64,000 bases of DNA from Lytechinus pictus (lineage: Eukaryota): the NCBI RefSeq assembly GCF_037042905.1, contig NC_087251.1, positions 15,502,001-15,566,000 on the forward strand, read 5' to 3'. The notes below the pieces were generated by a model. That model did not search any database. It was not told the origin of the DNA and saw only the letters and a program-made list of their open reading frames with translations. The translations under genes were made by a program, and so were the position numbers. Position 1 is the stretch's first letter. The number at the start of each line of letters is the position of its first letter. Shown piece by piece: positions 1,464 to 49,558 of this stretch.

Positions 1464-1716
1464 ATTTGCATATCAATAACCGGTACCCGATACCTAACTT
1501 GAGCACAGAAAAGATTCAATCTCGGTCATTATTTTAACTATTACAAAACAATTCGAAAACATACTTGATAATCAATTCACAAATTTTCTTCTAAAAAGTA
1601 AAATATATCGATATATTGCATCGATTGTCGAATCCGCAGTCGGAAAATAAATTTAATGCCGAAAAACTTTTTACTAACTACAATATTTCTTTGATTCCGA
1701 CTTGGCGGAGATATAA
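1464..1716 (+). promoter_or_regulatory. Type-3 Pol III external promoter of the 7SK gene (octamer + TATA; PSE expected about 1675-1695 but not identified)
   Basis: Perfect octamer ATTTGCAT at 1464-1471 (about -277) and TATAA at 1712-1716 (-29 to -25 from G1741). This is the layout known for U6/7SK promoters. Confidence 0.6.
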
Positions 1717-1740: not shown

Positions 1741-2085
1741 GGTCGTGCGGGGTGTCTCAGTCGCCACTGTCCCTGTGATTGACCGCTCGAGTGTAGGCAA
1801 TAAAGGTGCTCCTCGTGGTCTCGGTCCTGTGGCCCTAACTGTAGGTGTAACCAAACCTGTCGCTACCCACTCCTTTCCTGTAGAGGTTCTCCCGATGCTT
1901 CAGCGCTCGGTTGCAGAGCCTTGTCCCCAGCTCTCCTAGAGGGTTCCAAATCGGGTGTATTCTCCGTGGATAGGCGTCCTCATCTCTGTTGTCCAGTACT
2001 TCTGGGGGGAGGTCTGTCTTTCGTGAAGTCAACGGTTATGGCGCGACCATTAACAGAGCACCACATGTGGTGGAGCTCATTTTTT
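1741..2085 (+). ncRNA. RN7SK: 7SK snRNA gene (divergent invertebrate homologue), ~345 nt
   Basis: 5' GGTCGTGC (1741-1748) pairs with GCGCGACC (2041-2048), like the 7SK closing helix (human GGAUGUG/CACAUCC). ATTGACCGC at 1778-1786 sits at the offset of human AUUGAUCGC and pairs with GTGGTC (1815-1820). CTCCCGATGCTTCAGCGCTCGGT (1889-1911) matches recalled human CTCCCGAAGCTGCGCGCTCGGT at 20/23 columns. The terminal hairpin GAGC-A-CCAC-ATGTG-GTGG-A-GCTC (2056-2078) has the human SL4 loop AUGUG and is followed by T6. TATA at about -29. Confidence 0.88.
2080..2085 (+). terminator. Pol III oligo-T terminator of 7SK
   Basis: TTTTTT one base after the terminal hairpin. Confidence 0.8.
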
Positions 2086-13600: not shown

Positions 13601-16600
13601 GATGAGCAAGAATAATTCAAAATTTCTATGTCAAAATCAAGTTGCACAGGAAATTTTTAAAGGAAATTGTTGAGGATTATTTATTCTTTATATCTTTCTA
13701 TGAATATAAGCTTCACTTTTTTAATGCACTGAATATTGACTTTCAAGCAATTACAAATAAGATTCTAAATGTACCTGTTGTAAGATCAATATTATGCCTG
13801 TCTTCCTCTAGTCTTTTGATCTTGTCTTCAAGGTCAGCTTTCATGAGATCACGGAGTAAACTTTTCTCACTCTGTGGATTTAAACACATACCATGAAAGG
13901 GATGAATTAAATTGTCAAAAGTATAAACACTAGCTTCTGATGGAATGAGAGGTATATTGTATTTCTTCATTGTGTATAATCAGCAATCCCTTAACTTATT
14001 AGTGGAAATGGCAACTTACAAGGCATACTATAACTTAGAGCAACCAGAGGATAGATAGCGTGCGTGGCCCGATACAGCAGCATGTGAGACACAAAGACCA
14101 TGTCTGCCAGCAGATAATGAATTGTAATTTCTTTTCCTGTCCACACAAGGTAAAACAAAGTTTAAAAAATAAAAATATGCTCACATACAGAACATGTATG
14201 TTCAGCTCTGCATCTCTACAAAACTTGTCCTGATTTCTGAAATATTACCAGTACATGATTAGTTCGTGAATGGTACATTAACATCACAGGCCTACCTATA
14301 ATATTTCTATATTTCTTTCTCTCCAATGAAAATATATTTTTTTATAATATGCGTTCGGGGAATGATGAGGGAATCATTCTTTTATTAAAAAAGAAATTAC
14401 CTCATGGTTTTCCCTTGAGGCTTTTTCTTCACTCTGTAGTTTATTTCTGATGTTCTCCATGCGTAGCTCTCTCAGGACACTAGCAATACGGAGCTTTCTA
14501 CTCTTCATCTGGTCCAGCTCATGGAGGGGGGTTAGATACTCGTGAGCAGCTTCCAACTTGACATCGTTCAACTTAAACTCAATTTGTTCCAGTCGTTCTG
14601 AGTACAATCTACATTGAAGCATTTATAAGGAATGAGTTATACACAATTAACCATGCATGAATGTCAATCATAGGGGCATTCAGCTTAAACTAAGATACAA
14701 AATGTCAAAGGACAAAAACAATGGAATGAAATGGCCCCAGAGATCTTATACAAAACTGATATTTCTAAAAAACACTTTCTAGATTTCATTATTTCCATTC
14801 AAGTATACAGAGTAAACTTACTTGCCATTTCTTTATTAGACTTTTTTGTCATAGATTTTGGTAAATAAAGCCTACAAGACATTTACTGTTTATAGAGTAC
14901 ATGAAAGGGCATAAAGGGATAACAAATTGGCATAAGAAAAATCTCTTTTTATTACTTCTCCAAGATCATATATATGGTAACAAAATTGCAATAAAATTAT
15001 TGCACTTTATGATTATCAGAGATGACATCAATGATTTTACTTCAAAGCTTGATAAGCTCCCTAATTGGTGCAACTTTTATTTTTAAGATAATCAATAATT
15101 TTCTAATACTTACTGATCTCTGAGACTTGTGAACTGACTTTCTAGATCATTCATGTCTTCCATACATTCAGTTCTTCTTCTGTCACAGTCAAATTCATCA
15201 TACTCTGTTCCATGATAAAAAACATTTAAAAAAAAATTCTCTGTTGTTTCTTAAGGTTCAATTTGTTAAGTACAACTTTTCAATTGTCTGAGAAGTACAT
15301 GTATATGAATATCATCAGAATTTTTGGCATTAGCAAACAGAAAATACATCTTTTTTATGAATGAAGTTCAACAAAAGCATACAGACTGAAATGGCCATGT
15401 ACATTTACATATCAAAAGCATTTAGACTTTAGTATTTGATGGCATCAAGTGATTTAAGAATAGAGCTATTCAGTACATGGATAATTTTCAGTATTGTTTT
15501 CCATCTTACAATTTTTTTTGTTTTCAACATCATAGTATATCATGATATTGGATCGTTTATCAAATACAAAGCAATAGCATACAGAAAATAAAATCTTGTT
15601 TTCCTTGTATTTGCCAGTTAGAATTTAACACTACGCTGCATGCTGACTGGCTCAAGTACTCACTTAACCTGGTTTTTGTTTCAAGGTATGATTTGTTCAT
15701 AACAACCATTAATCTAACTTTCTGTATGAATTATTCATCTCAACTAATACCCTTTACAAGGAGAGGGGACATAAAAAGAGAAAAAGAAGCAAAGCAGATC
15801 TAAAATAAGTGAAAAGCAAAGAATTCATGAATTATGGAAATAGAAAATACTAAATTATAGAAAAAATATTTTACCCTCTTTCAAAACATGTAGGAACATC
15901 TTAACATAACCATTTCAACAAAATGTAATTGGCAGTGGGTGTTCTTACATACTTAGAAACATGTATATTTCTGTATGAAAATGTGATTGATAATTCAAGT
16001 GATGTACGTGTTACATGTCAATTCAATAAAATAATTAAATAAATAAAATATTCAAAAATACAAAATTTTGATCACTTAACCACAGAAAACGTGAAAAGTT
16101 TTGTTTGGAGGGGTTGTATGGCATAGGTTTAAATGAAAAGTAACCAAAATTAAAAGTTTTAAAACATACACAAAAATCATAATTCATAAAGTCCTGTAAT
16201 CACAAACCCCCCTCCCCCTAGACAACTGTGACATTCATAAGTGACATAATTTATAACTTCTTCTTCAGTACATGTATGTATCCTTCATGATTTAATATCA
16301 AAACACATGCAGTCATGCAGGGAGGCATCGTAGCTCAGTCGGTTAGAGCGCATGTTTCGGATAAGATCGTAGATCTCAACGTGAGGGGTTCGAGTCCCGC
16401 TCATGCCAAAACACGTCTAACAAAAAATGTGATGCTACATGTATAGCGTCTTAATAGCGTTGTGTGTTAGTGTGCCTCACCACTGTATTCAGTGCAGGTG
16501 TGAATGCAGTTGGAAAACACTCCGTCCATCGGAAAGGACGCAAATGTTGGTTTCGTGTACAGGAGAGTCACAACCTATGCACGTTAAAACCAATACACTA

Positions 16601-38991: not shown

Positions 38992-39353
38992 CCAGGGGAT
39001 ATAACTCAATCTTGAAGCATAGGATTCGTTTTGTTTTTGTTTATTAAAGCTTCTAGCTTTCATATTCCACTACGAATCGAACTTCTTACTATTTTGATGT
39101 TTTTTTTAATTTTTTTTTCTTCATGACACTTTTATACACTTTGCCTACCTGTAAATATGTTGCCTTGTGCATCATTGTATATATTTTACATATTTCCTGT
39201 ATTCCTCCTTCCTTTATTTCTCACCCTCTATACCTGTACATCGAGCACATGCATGCATTTACACTTTTCCTGTATGTTTATGTGCTAGCCAGCCAGTCCT
39301 ACCTGTATCATGTTGCACATCTCATGCTAATTCAACTTCCTTTTTGTTTTACA

Positions 39354-42300
39354 ATGGCTCAGTTTGAAGACGATATTTGTAATTTTTTTGAAGATAATCA
39401 CTGTAGTATAAATGGTAACATGCATAATGCTGTCCCTGATTGTAACTATTGCACAGAAAAACAGTTTTTTGAATTAGTTTGTAATACCAGAATGAGCACT
39501 GACCTAACTCTCCTTCATATGAATATTCGCAGCTTGTGTAAGAACTTTGATAATGTATTAGCATTCAGTAGTAATATCAACCCAGGGCTTGTCCCTATAT
39601 TGGCGTCTCTGAGACTGGGTTTTCTGGTGAAAATGATATGAATCTCTTTTCTATTCCAGGTTATGATATAATTTGTAATAATAGGAAAAATAAAAGAGGT
39701 GGTGGTGTTGCAATATATGTCCCTTCTCAGTTATATAGATTATCAGGTTTGTCATGATCTTAATTTAATGACCGATCATTTGGAAGCTGTATTTATAGAA
39801 ATTTTGCTTCCTGGTAAAAGAAATGTTGTTCTTGGAGAAATCTACAGACCTCCCCATGGTAATTTCACAAGTTTTATAGATGACATGCAAAATATATTGG
39901 AAAAAGCTTTGCTTTCTCATAAATCATTATTTTTGATGGGGGATTTTAACATAAATCTATTACACTGCAATGATAATGTTCACGTTGATGACTTCTTGAA
40001 CCTGTTAATGTCTTTTTCATTGTTACCCTTAATCACAAAGCCTATCAGAGTAACTGATACATCTTCCACACTTATTGATAATATTTTTAGTAATTTGCAA
40101 CCAGCTCCGTCTTCTGGAGTAGTAATTTCTGACTTATCTGACCACTTTCCTGTTTTTACTAAACTAGCTTTAGGACAATATAAGGATCCAAATATTTACA
40201 ACACCCATACTCGCCAAAGCAATTCTGAAAATATCGCTCGGCTCAGAGAAGCGTTAACTTCGGCTGATTGGAGTGACATACTCTCAGACCAAAGTGTTGA
40301 GAGTGCCTTTGATAATTTCATGAAAAAATTAATGGTTCTATATGACGAGAACTTACCTGTGATTAATTGTACAAATAAGAGTCGATTTAGAGTTCCACGT
40401 ATGCCGTGGATTACCAAATCTTTGTTAAACTCAATTAATAAGAAAAATAAGATGCATTACCAATATAAAAAAAACAAAGTCAGCATTTTTGTATAGGAAA
40501 TATTCAGCATATAGAAATACTTTAACTGCTACATTGCGTAATGCAAAAAAGCAATATTACTGTGCTCAATTCCAAGCGACTTTTGATAATATTAAGGATA
40601 CCTGGAAAGTGATCAGAAATGTTTTTAAAGCGCCACTTAAGGTTTCAAAGATAAAGCAGGTAATCATAAATGATCAAGGATGATAACAGTGTTATTGTAG
40701 TAGAGTTCAACAATTATTTTTGTAATATTGGTCCAAATTTACAGGCGGCTATTCCACCCTGTCAAAAAACCTGTGCTGACTTCTTGTCTGAGCCTACTTT
40801 GGAAAGTCTATTTTTTGCCTACAAGTGAGGAAGAGTTGACTGATGTGGTTAGATCTCTCAAAAGTAAAAAGAGCCCATCGCAGGCTGTGATAATATTAAA
40901 AATGAACTTATTAAACATGTTATTGTAGGAATCTTGACACCTCTTACTCACATCTTTAATCTTTCAATGTCAAATGGCATTGTGCCTAGAAGCATGAAAA
41001 TTGCAAAAGTTGTGCCAATTTTTAAGAAAGGCAACCCTGAATTGTTGACCATCGTCCAATTTCTTTGTTGACATCTTCATACAATTTTTCAAAAAGTCAA
41101 ATATCTTTTCGAATTTTCAATTTGGGTTTTGTGAGAAGCATACAACTACACATGCCATTTTGCACTTTGTTGATAAGGTTGCCACTGCCTTGGATAATTA
41201 CTTGAGCACAATTTATTGGTATATTCTTGGATTTTTCTAAGGCTTTTGATACAGTTGATCATAAAATTTTGCTACATAAGTTATCCCATTATGGAGTGAG
41301 AGGTGTTGCCCTTGAGTGGTTTAGGAGTTATCTCACTGACAGGAGACAATTTGTATCTTTGAATAGAATTAATTCCAGCTTGCAAACTGTTACATGTGGT
41401 GTACCTCAGGGGTCTCTTCTAGGACCTCTCTTATTCATACTGTATATAAATGATTTTCAAAATTCATCAAACAAATTATCTTTTATTTTCTTTGCTGATG
41501 ATTCTAGTGTATTTTTTTCACATAGGAATCCTCTAACCCTGATAGAAACAGTGAATTGTGAATTGGAGAATGTTATCTTGTGGGTTCAAGCCAATAAATT
41601 ATCACTTAATTTTCAAAAGACAAATTATATGCTTTTTAGCAATTCCTTAAAAATGCTGCCTGGCAATGTAATGTTTAATAATGTCTGTCTTGAAAGAGTA
41701 ACCTCAACTAAATTTCTTGGGTTATTTATGGATGAGAAATTGAACTGGAAACTTCATGTAAATCATTTTTGCAAACTGTTGTAAAAAATACCGGTGTTAT
41801 ATACAAGTTGAGACCAGTTTTCCCTATAGAAATTTTATTTATATTATATTCCTCATTAATTGTTCCTTACTTAAACTACGGTGTGCTTGCCTGGGGCAAC
41901 TCACTTAAAACGGAATTGCAAAAATTATTCATTGTTCAGAAGAGAGCTATTAGAAGTAGGGGAAGGCGGGGTAAGTTGAGCATAGGGGCAAGTTGAGCCA
42001 CCACCCCCAGGCCAATAATGAATGAGTCAGACATTGTGGTGGTGTCATGTATTGATGACCCATTACATAACCCTTTACCCCACCACATTGTTTTCGATTT
42101 TGAAACAAAAAGTACTTTTTTTAGGGGGGGGAATACAAATTTTAGCCAAAAAAGTAAAAAAGGATGTAAAAAAGATAAGTGCTTTTTACCCACACACGTC
42201 TTAAAATATAATAAAGAAATAAGAACAATATTGGTAGTCCAGGTATAGATCTTCATTCTTGTCACAGTCTTTTACATGATGGATGCATAAGAAATGTGTG

Positions 42301-43164
42301 GATGTGAAAATATCGCATTAAGTTAGGACTGGGGTACTTTGAGCCAGCTAACATGGGGCAAGTTGAGCCATGGTAATTTGTATGGTAATGTATAATAAAA
42401 AAAGAAACAAACCTTGAATAGTCATTGATATACAGGCAGAAAGGTGCAAATTCACATGACAGTTCTATTACTTTAGAGGATGTTAGTATTTATAGAGAAA
42501 TAGCAAGTGAATAGACTTGAAATAAAAAATTGACATGCTGGTTCTTCCCACATACATTTTGTACACAGTTTTTGTGGCACAACTTACCCCACATATGGGG
42601 CAAGTTGAGCCATTTGACATCGGTTTTTTCAAAGGTCACAATTAATTTCAGTGTGGGGGTAGAAAATTATATATAGGTGAAAAATATTTCCCAAGAATCA
42701 AATTTAAAGGCAAAGTACTTATTTCTACAATATTATTAGTCATATCAATTCTAACATGCAAAATGCAAAAAGTGTCACAACTTACCCCGTCTTCCCCTAT
42801 ATGTAATGTCAGTTATCGTGCCCATACAAATGTTTTATTTCATGACAATCACTTATTGAAAGTGGAAGATATTTACTTTATGCAGCTAGGATCTCTTATG
42901 TATGATTTTGATTCAGGAAGTCTCCCTTCAGCCCTGGCACTGATATTTAAGAAAAATAGTCAAGTACACAATTACAATACTAGACAATCTTCCGCTCTCC
43001 ATATATCTCGTACAAGAACAAAGTTCACTTTGGGCACTCTAGTTTGCACTGGACCCAGGTTTTGGAATGCACTTGACCCTGACATTACACATGCTGTCAG
43101 TTCTACAGTGTTTAAACGAAAATTGAAATCTTATTTACTGAGTAACTATGGAAGTGATTCGTAA
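39354..43164 (+). pseudogene. LINE ORF2 (APE endonuclease + reverse transcriptase), frameshifted and interrupted
   Basis: Motifs HMNIRSL, EIYRPP, MGDFNINL, TLIDNIF and SDHFPV (endonuclease); [30 protein letters not shown] and FADD (RT). Spread over several frames with stops. Confidence 0.92.
41959..42797. mobile_element. Non-autonomous Tc1/mariner(pogo)-type DNA transposon inserted in LINE ORF2
   Basis: TA target duplication (41957-41958, 42798-42799) and TIRs GGGGAAGGCGGGGTAAGTTG / CAACTTACCCCGTCTTCCCC. Removing it restores the frame QKRAIRSICNVSYRAHTN. Confidence 0.92.
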
Positions 43165-47899: not shown

Positions 47900-48620
47900 T
47901 GGGGTGTATGATTTTAAGCAGAGCAGGTTTTGACGTGTTGTGTAAAGATTGCTAATGTCACTGAAATATACGGTATACCAGTATGATCGTTGGGGGCCCT
48001 AAACTACTACACACACGCACTTTGTTTACAAACGATAAACAGTAACAGTACACTTAGTAACAGGTTAGGCCTAACTGTTAATGTTTGACAATAGAATAAG
48101 ATAAGGGGTCTAGAAGTAGAACTAACGTTAGACCTAGAACCCTATGTCAATTTTAATATTTGAACAAATTTTCTTTCACTGATTTGTGGTAAATATTCTA
48201 AAGATCCTAAGTTCTTAACCAAGAAGATAATATCACAAAACTCACTAATTCGGGAAAATCCCACCGTGTTTTCCGAACACCTCTTGATCAGAGACTCCAA
48301 CTCTCCCGCCGAAAGCCCTTTTTCACAAATCCTAGCCCTTGATTTATCATGTAAAGAAATAGTATTTCCAATTTCTGTGCCTCATTTTCTAAAATATGTT
48401 CATAATATTATAGGAAAATATGAAATTAAAGCGAATAGACTATAACTCTAAAATTACTGGGTTTTTTTTCTGCATTTAGTGATTTATTGCAGCCTCTGTA
48501 GAAAAATTGAATAGGAATTGTTTGTTACACTGCAGCCATAGTTCCACACATAGAGTGCGCATTTTGCCATTGAAATTGCATGCGAGATGAGTGTTGCGTA
48601 GCTTCAGGACCCCTACCATA

Positions 48621-49180
48621 CGGTATATGATATTGATAAGTGTATGCAGGGACGGATCCACGGTATATGATATTGATAAGTGTATGCAGGGACGGATCCA
48701 CGGTATATGATATTGATAAGTGTACGCAGGGACGGATCCACGGTATATGATATTGATAAGTGTACGCAGGGGCGGATCCACGGTATATGATATTGATAAG
48801 TGTATGCAGGGGCGGATCCACGGTATATGATATTGATAAGTGTATGCAGGGACGGATCCACGGTATATGATATTGATAAGTGTATGCAGGGACGGATCCA
48901 CGGTATATGATATTGATAAGTGTACGCAGGGACGGATCCACGGTATATGATATTGATAAGTGTATGCAGGGACGGATCCACGGTATATGATATTGATAAG
49001 TGTATGCAGGGGCGGATCCACGGTATATGATATTGATAAGTGTATGCAGGGGCGGATCCACGGTATATGATATTGATAAGTGTATGCAGGGGCGGATCCA
49101 CGGTATATGATATTGATAAGTGTATGCAGGGGCGGATCCACGGTATATGATATTGATAAGTGTATGCAGGGGCGGATCCA
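48621..49180. repeat. 40-bp minisatellite, 14 near-identical units, in the TMEM229B 5' intron
   Basis: Unit CGGTATATGATATTGATAAGTGTA(T/C)GCAGGG(A/G)CGGATCCA; only two variable positions. Confidence 0.98.
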
Positions 49181-49558
49181 AGATTTTCCAAAAGGGGGAC
49201 ATTTTCCCGAGGAAAAATTTGACAAGAAAAGAAAAAGGAGACCGAGCCTGGCTTTAGTAAAACAAGATGCTCAATATTCTCAATCACACAAAGACAGAGC
49301 ACAGTCTGGCAGCATCATCAGAAGCCTTCTCAATCTCGACAAGTCTAGCTTGTACTAATAATGTTAGCAGGGATATCCATGGAAGTCTTGCTCACCCATT
49401 ACATGTATGTACTAATTGTTTCTTTTTTTTGTTCTTACTCTGCAGAATCAAGATAAAAACCTGTCCAGTGGTAGCTCCACTTGGTTTCACTCCATGATAT
49501 CAAAAGACGAGCAAGTGCATCTCCACTAAAGACACACTTCCAGTTTGATTTATTAACC

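Follow-up and report, generated by a model that had tools for sequence, protein, structure and literature searches.

A single-copy candidate 7SK snRNA gene of the sea urchin Lytechinus pictus with a predicted GACC/GGUC equivalent of the site bound by HEXIM

7SK is an RNA which restrains transcription elongation; it binds HEXIM and sequesters P-TEFb, is bound by LARP7 and receives its cap from MePCE. The 7SK RNA of vertebrates (RF00100) is an abundant RNA polymerase III (Pol III) transcript of ~330–345 nt, with an upstream promoter, a T-run terminator and a 5′ end which pairs near the 3′ hairpin. This closing of the 5′ end has been described as the closed M1/SL0 form (PMC5499737). In the human RNA, the site recognized by HEXIM and Tat consists of the pair A39-U68, the bulge U40U41, the pairs G42-C67, A43-U66, U44-A65 and C45-G64, and the bulge U63 (PMC6189040, PMC5499737). 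Within this site, U40 lies on A43-U66 beside G42 and A39/U68 (pseudo-ASM3), where mutation abolishes the binding of both Tat and HEXIM, while U63 lies on A65-U44 (ASM4) and can be deleted with a moderate loss (PMC6189040). The (GAUC)2 signature of the site has been termed strictly conserved (PMC5389472), and in published accounts the GAUC repeat is a key feature for the recognition of 7SK genes, with the distal GAUC being held as conserved in all known 7SKs. The human GAUC2 tetrad has two partners, GAUC3 when the RNA is open and GAUC1 when it is closed (PMC5499737). The variants (GGCC)2 and (GUAC)2, in which both central pairs are altered, abolish the binding of human HEXIM1 (PMC2995076, PMC5389472). 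For the 3′ end of the human RNA, one account of SL4 gives a five-nucleotide loop 5′-AUGUG-3′ closed by C309-G315 with a UUU-3′OH tail, and names G312 and U313 of the loop as required for LARP7 (PMC5175362).

Outside the vertebrates, the 7SKs of lancelet, snail, annelids and arthropods (RF01052) are weakly conserved overall but keep the 5′ and 3′ hairpins (PMC8406779, PMC10083321). A published exception to the GAUC stem is snRNA:7SK:94F of Drosophila, a 7SK-like RNA in which the motif reads GAUG and whose HEXIM contact is discussed by its authors as likely changed. This RNA, however, is the lower-expressed second paralogue in a genome that also has a canonical 7SK; it probably does not arise from Pol III, and its change is one-sided. 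In HIV-1 TAR, a viral element with an apical hexaloop nearby, a U-rich bulge is followed by a G-C and an A-U pair, and the U that comes first in the bulge makes a triple on the latter. The TAR bulge and ASM3 of 7SK share an identical secondary structure (PMC6189040). A description of an echinoderm 7SK was not found in the full-text literature, although the primary papers on invertebrate 7SKs and their supplements may hold one.

The window analysed here is a stretch of 64,000 nt of Lytechinus pictus DNA, to which all positions refer, unless they are given as nucleotides (nt) of the RNA. Positions 1741–2085 on its plus strand were found to have the properties that are collected in Table 1, and these are probably best explained by a single-copy urchin 7SK-type snRNA gene which carries a GACC/GGUC equivalent of the HEXIM site. 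Direct reading of the window gives ATTGACCGC at 1778–1786 with GACC at 1781–1784, GTGGTC at 1815–1820 and a further copy of GGTC at 1823–1826, while a script count gives no GATC in 1741–2086; an earlier reading, made from the sequence only, had reported these positions and this absence correctly. Since only about 1.2 occurrences of GATC are expected by composition, its absence has little meaning by itself. GACC occurs twice (1.15 expected) and GGTC four times (2.1 expected) within 1741–2086, counts which are not unusual. What exceeds chance at the site is its context rather than its tetrads: a UU bulge behind an A-U pair lies at a distance like that of human 7SK from a mapped 5′ end, in a Pol III gene which has a 3′ hairpin of the 7SK type. 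The stretch forms a GC island of 0.52–0.55 GC in surrounding DNA of 0.26–0.38 GC, and its 346 nt occur in one copy in the genome of the species (811.7 Mb in 368 contigs).

Table 1. Features of the candidate 7SK gene, with positions in the 64,000-nt window and the observations on which each is based.
Feature	Position	Strand	Basis
PSE-like element TACTAACTA, with TAACT at -66	1672..1680	+	Distance alignment with Pol III genes of the same genome
TATA box, with TATAA at -29	1712..1716	+	Distance alignment and regular expression
Transcribed small RNA, candidate 7SK, ~344 nt	1741..2085	+	RNA contig, single copy, GC island
Closing helix, 5′ strand (M1/SL0-like) GGUCGUGC	1741..1748	+	Eight predicted pairs with 2041–2048, probability 0.96–1.0
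5′ hairpin, SL1-like	1763..1833	+	Predicted from the single sequence and a five-row alignment; substitutions at 1788 and 1806 unpaired
Candidate HEXIM-site equivalent, 5′ strand: paired G-A, UU bulge 1779–1780, GACCGC 1781–1786	1777..1786	+	Predicted fold; layout compared with human
Candidate HEXIM-site equivalent, 3′ strand: GUGGUC 1815–1820 with GACCGC; UC 1821–1822 with GA 1777–1778	1815..1822	+	Predicted; unchanged in 3/3 relatives
Second GGUC, possible alternative partner	1823..1826	+	Predicted pairing with 1781–1784 rare; unchanged in relatives
Closing helix, 3′ strand GCGCGACC	2041..2048	+	Predicted pairing; 2043 G>A in run X8 keeps the pair
3′ hairpin, SL4-like: GAGC-A-CCAC-[AUGUG]-GUGG-A-GCUC	2056..2078	+	Pair probabilities 0.99–1.0
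T6 Pol III terminator / 3′ U tail	2080..2085	+	Letters; contig match stops at 2084

Elsewhere in the window, a run of open frames at 39057–43164 on the plus strand has endonuclease-like and reverse-transcriptase-like translations (motifs recognized by eye), and this is a probable non-LTR retrotransposon whose frames are broken. On the minus strand, all three frames are open across a tandem repeat at 48476–49314, whose unit is ~40 residues long (..HIPWIRPCIHLSISYTVDPPLHTLINIIYRGS..). At 16324–16408 on the plus strand there is a tRNA-like Rfam match at threshold (29.1 vs. 29 bits) whose anticodon arm carries an insert of 20 nt; no tRNA was found there by ARAGORN, and this candidate was set aside as unconfirmed.

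The candidate gene is transcribed. Run X8 of this species contains a cDNA contig (depth 171.5) whose match covers exactly 1741–2084 and thus ends inside the T6 run. At 1741 the contig is joined to 22 adaptor-like letters, which we take to be the end of a template-switching cDNA adaptor, and the 5′ end of the RNA is therefore placed at 1741 to within the G run. It follows that GACC occupies nt 41–44 of the RNA, as had been proposed before the end was fixed by this join. Since the comparison was made with contigs and not reads, the level of expression and the 3′ end are not fixed by the X8 data. Four RNA runs were compared with 1600–2200 (X8 and those of three relatives), and none of their contigs matched the flanks of 1741–2084 within this interval. 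A total of 24 runs are listed for the stretch; in 14 of these, which all come from one organism and belong to five studies, at least 50% of the sampled words were present. At 2043 the X8 contig has A where the assembly has G, which changes the U1746-G2043 wobble of the closing helix to U-A and may represent an allele or an edit.

These data also bear on a reading of the locus as a pseudogene, an assembly error or the private mutation of one animal. Such a reading is already contradicted by the run coverage (14 runs from the same organism) and by the RNA contigs, whose ends are exact in X8 and whose tetrads are the same in all three relatives; the gene is moreover single copy with an intact promoter. 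As no supporting points were found for it, this explanation is considered extremely improbable.

For the promoter, nine Rfam-detected genes of the same genome (U6, U6-like, U6atac, RNase P and RNase MRP) served as references, with their upstream DNA aligned by distance. An element like that at -66 of the candidate is present at -62 to -66 in six of the nine, reading CAACC in U6 (L008), TAACT in three U6-like genes (L009–L011) and in RNase MRP (L025), and TACTAACC in one U6atac gene (L028); in L011 all nine promoter letters are identical to those of the candidate. The two RNase P genes have TCACTG at about the same upstream spot. In seven of the nine references, a TATA-like element was located by a regular expression between -28 and -31; the two others are the U6atac gene L029, which is also without a PSE-like element upstream, and the MRP gene L025, in which an atypical ‘catatag’ was seen by eye near -30. 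The promoter layout is thus one that is common to U6, U6atac, RNase P and MRP genes of this genome and, together with the T-run terminator and a size in the ~330 nt class, it marks the candidate as a type-3 Pol III gene.

The reference set itself contains two groups of U6 relatives. The genes L009, L010 and L011 (contigs C2 and C6; 95.6 bits each) have one common coding sequence, which differs from canonical U6 (L008, 117.4 bits) in the first ~20 nt and in part of the internal stem. All three are equipped with a PSE-like element, a TATA box and a T-run of their own, and the flanks of L011 are unlike those of L009 and L010. A transcribed family of variant U6 genes seems likelier here than dead copies. 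The U6 copies L012 and L016 have an A-run behind them with the upstream promoter elements being absent, and are probably retro-pseudogenes.

The fold was predicted for the full-length RNA. Its 5′ end pairs just upstream of the 3′ hairpin, as in the closed M1/SL0 form. In the 3′ hairpin, the loop AUGUG (2065–2069) is closed by C2064-G2070, and the hairpin is followed by A and U6, so that the five-nucleotide loop and the U tail of a putative LARP7 site are both present in the candidate RNA. The same loop, the same closing C-G pair and a U tail are found in vertebrate 7SK, although the 3′ hairpin of the urchin RNA has an A/A mismatch where the human one has a CU bulge.

In the 5′ hairpin, the pairs predicted around the bulged U1779 and U1780 are G1777-C1822 and A1778-U1821, and the helix above the bulge consists of G1781-C1820, A1782-U1819, C1783-G1818, C1784-G1817, G1785-U1816 and C1786-G1815. 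A single-nucleotide bulge equivalent to human U63 was not predicted, with U1816 instead being placed in a G-U wobble. The pairing of GACC with GGUC, which the sequence-only reading had put forward, was recovered in the full-length ensemble with a probability of ~0.6 (GACC41–44 with GGUC77–80). Structures with this helix lie, however, at least 0.7 kcal/mol above the minimum free energy (MFE) structure, which uses another pairing, and the segment 1763–1833 is no stabler than its shuffled versions (z = +0.35). It is consequently the layout and the homology, rather than the energy, which argue for this helix, and the support that folding lends to it is moderate. That reading had further suggested that the two GGUC partners would allow alternative registers. 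The second GGUC is indeed present, but the register that uses it (nt 83–86) is predicted to be rare, having a probability of ~0.01 and a best structure 2.9 kcal/mol worse.

An urchin 7SK could nevertheless offer HEXIM a different structure, namely GACC paired with the second GGUC (nt 83–86) or with the 5′ GGUC (nt 1–4), or a site elsewhere. The tetrads are repeated in the RNA (GGUC four times, GACC twice) and the MFE structure of the full-length RNA departs from the proposed hairpin. In a separate fold of the first 110 nt, the MFE structure (-30.3) pairs GGUC1–4 with GACC41–44, compared with -27.4 for the proposed helix. In the full-length ensemble, by contrast, the probability of this 5′-terminal pairing is ~0, since the closing helix already engages the 5′ end (p ~1), and the human order of an A-U pair, a UU bulge, a G-C pair and an A-U pair is reproduced by the proposed register only. 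A different HEXIM site is therefore regarded as unlikely, and the helix of GACC41–44 with GGUC77–80 is preferred in what follows.

When this helix is set against the human site, the structural equivalent of the HEXIM/Tat site (A-U, U bulge, G-C, A-U at ~40 nt from the 5′ end) is present by prediction (p ~0.6). What is kept is the UU bulge, with the A-U pair beneath it and the first two pairs of the helix above it (G-C and A-U), lying one nucleotide further upstream (nt 38–44 in the urchin, 39–45 in human) and opening a helix of 4 bp in both. The third pair, U44-A65 in human, is C-G in the urchin RNA, with both strands being altered, so that the helix becomes GACC/GGUC and its palindrome is lost. 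Relative to the published human site, the change is thus two-sided in the predicted fold, in agreement with the compensatory U-A to C-G swap that had been proposed. The literal 7SK motif, i.e. two GAUC tetrads in a helix framed by unpaired U, is not found in 1741–2086, where GATC is absent and the UU bulge is present. Further differences from vertebrate 7SK are that the urchin tetrads are non-palindromic, that 28 nt separate the strands in the longer apical part of its hairpin (~17 in human), that no U63-type bulge is predicted and that a GAUC1-type upstream partner is missing. From the invertebrate 7SKs it differs in the absence of the distal GAUC. The elements of the TAR bulge are kept in the predicted urchin site, and in TAR, too, a G/C pair occupies the third position. 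Compared with snRNA:7SK:94F, the urchin RNA has no second candidate beside it among the few first-look candidates scored in its genome, it is made from a Pol III gene, and its change is two-sided and preserves the pair.

As mutants of both central pairs eliminate the binding of HEXIM1, a change of the third pair might not be neutral; a test of the third pair alone was not found in the literature examined on HEXIM1-binding mutants. The exchange of partners by human GAUC2 depends on a self-complementary tetrad, whereas GACC cannot pair with GACC, and the urchin RNA therefore cannot use the same exchange. Candidate exchange partners within it are GGUC at nt 1–4, 77–80 and 83–86, and GACC at nt 41–44 and 305–308.

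Three contigs from RNA libraries, with a likeness of 90–99%, cover the site in relatives, one from a second organism (organism B) and the others from an estuary and a marine metatranscriptome. They span 1747–2044, 1757–2065 and 1756–1950, and the alignment is thus uninformative before 1747 and after 2065. The GACC tetrad and both GGUC tetrads are identical in all three relatives. Within 1778–1826 the relatives vary only at 1788 (3/3) and 1806 (1/3), both of which are unpaired in the predicted fold. Over the whole RNA there are 14 substituted sites, eight unpaired and six paired, and each of the six paired ones keeps a pair (C-G to U-G four times, and U-G to C-G and G-U to A-U once each). Insertions and deletions are concentrated in 1881–1999, so that the ends of the RNA are conserved and its middle is variable, a combination which is a known pattern of 7SK. 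It had been stated that GAUC/GAUC in close relatives, as a sign of a private mutation or a pseudogene, would speak against the swap. This was not observed, since 3/3 relatives have GACC/GGUC in what is in L. pictus a single-copy, expressed gene. Private mutation is thereby excluded, but because the divergence is only ~3–4% and the motif invariant, the agreement of the relatives says little beyond this and beyond excluding an assembly error, and from it a fixation of the motif across the wider clade would not follow. A pattern scan of metagenomes, in which GAUC or GACC was allowed together with the 3′ hairpin CATGTGG, yielded eight loci, which is about the chance expectation; none resembled the candidate RNA (local scores 11–16) or had a terminator, and these were rejected.

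Neither of the Rfam models of 7SK, RF00100 and RF01052 (Arthropod_7SK), with gathering thresholds of 35 and 44 bits, respectively, matched the window, or 1400–2400, 1720–2100, 1741–1845 and 2030–2090 within it, at any E value up to 10. In searches of the whole genome, RF00100 had no matches among the 19 of ~8995 first-look candidates that were scored. RF01052, for which 22 of many thousands of candidates were scored, had five matches (best 22.8 bits), none of them at the locus. No other 7SK candidate was thus found among the few first-look candidates scored. It had been predicted that the swap would defeat searches by a GAUC pattern. There is no GAUC in the RNA to be found; since the whole RNA is missed by Rfam, the miss cannot be attributed to the tetrad alone. 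The genome does encode possible partners of a 7SK RNA. A HEXIM (PF15313) was detected at 98.6 bits in an open frame of 292 aa, which is identical, letter for letter, to the public entry ‘HEXIM1-like [Lytechinus pictus]’, and the xRRM domain (PF08777) was found at two loci and the Bin3 domain (PF06859) at 97.7 bits. HEXIM, LARP7 and MePCE would accordingly co-occur with the candidate, the xRRM and Bin3 matches being consistent with the latter two, since these domains also occur in La and BCDIN3D.

The lack of a match to the 7SK models, together with the absence of GAUC, a middle section of 200 nt without recognized likeness and the lack of a published echinoderm 7SK for comparison in the full-text literature search, could also be accounted for by a lineage-specific Pol III small RNA that is unrelated to 7SK and resembles it at the ends by chance or convergence. 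Against this, the closing helix, the bulged 5′ helix at nt 38–44, the AUGUG 3′ hairpin and the U tail are four independent features that occur in the right order, at the right distances and in an RNA of the right size, and the genome has a HEXIM with no other 7SK candidate found among the few scored. In addition, RNase P, MRP, U6 and U6atac were all detected by Rfam at other loci, and the candidate locus is therefore none of them. An unrelated RNA is for these reasons thought to be improbable. What separates the candidate from described 7SKs is the Rfam model and the literal GAUC repeat; it agrees with them in promoter and size, in the ends of the RNA, in the predicted closing and bulged 5′ helices and in the 3′ hairpin. 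We infer that it is a probable divergent orthologue of 7SK with a natural, pair-keeping variant of the signature, to which HEXIM would bind.

The HEXIM protein was compared in an alignment of 22 of the 120 listed homologues (11 echinoderms, two hemichordates, seven other invertebrates and two frogs). PYNTTQFLME is invariant across the 22, so that PYNT is kept in the urchin, and the urchin basic motif KSRKRRR-PR-RKNRK-W aligns with the human motif, having Pro-Arg where the human protein has Pro-Ser. The human motif comprises two basic segments of seven and five residues linked by Pro-Ser, with P157 and S158 being essential for specific binding by the human peptide, and urchin is already among the listed exceptions to Pro-Ser (PMC2995076). 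In the alignment, the linker proline is found in 4/4 echinoids and in 0/16 of the other non-vertebrate rows, and the serine position of the echinoids is occupied by arginine. A co-evolved basic motif in HEXIM, which the sequence-only reading had raised as one consequence of the swap, is not supported by this comparison and was rejected. Since none of the 20 aligned non-vertebrate HEXIMs, within or outside the urchins, has Pro-Ser, Pro-Arg is no evidence of co-evolution with GACC. A separate observation from the same alignment is that the linker before PYNT is six residues shorter in all 13 echinoderm and hemichordate HEXIMs (..KRANR-PTPYNT..) than in the nine other animals (..FAHGQPVAPYNT..), which appears to be an ambulacrarian deletion.

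In the mechanism proposed for this gene, RNA polymerase III would transcribe 1741–2085 from the upstream PSE and TATA box and would stop in the T6 run. The RNA would then fold with its first 8 nt on 2041–2048 and with hairpins at 1763–1833 and at its 3′ end, the latter holding LARP7 by its AUGUG loop and U tail. The 5′ hairpin, with its A-U pair, UU bulge and four-pair helix, would act as the equivalent of the human HEXIM/Tat site, and the arginine-rich motif of urchin HEXIM may dock on the half that is kept, that is, on the U bulge stacked on the A-U pair beside the G-C pair. Such docking would need no equivalent of the human U63:A65-U44 triple, and the resulting RNP would presumably inhibit P-TEFb as in other animals. 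It is possible, although we hold it to be doubtful, that (GAUC)2 is not required by the 7SK system at all, that the echinoid site has been cut to a TAR-like half with the loss of both the U63:A65-U44 triple and the palindromy, and that P-TEFb is released without a motif switch or by another exchange of tetrads.

If this is true, the same GGUC/GACC pairing would both close the RNA and build the HEXIM site, and it would be explained why searches based on patterns and on models have missed an echinoderm 7SK. Should an echinoderm 7SK already be contained in the primary invertebrate papers, the gene would not be new and the reading of its motif would be what remains. Structural work on human 7SK takes the GAUC repeat as strictly conserved, and a natural, expressed swap of the third pair would amount to an experiment made by evolution. 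The swap argues for the half consisting of the bulged U, G-C and A-U, which corresponds to the critical pseudo-ASM3 (PMC6189040), as the core that HEXIM would recognize, which would leave the second base triple and the palindrome as refinements that came later or can be dispensed with. Rfam-based annotation finds no 7SK in this organism, a classic model of development, and the locus provides a concrete candidate for it, by which the control of P-TEFb in the urchin embryo would become testable.
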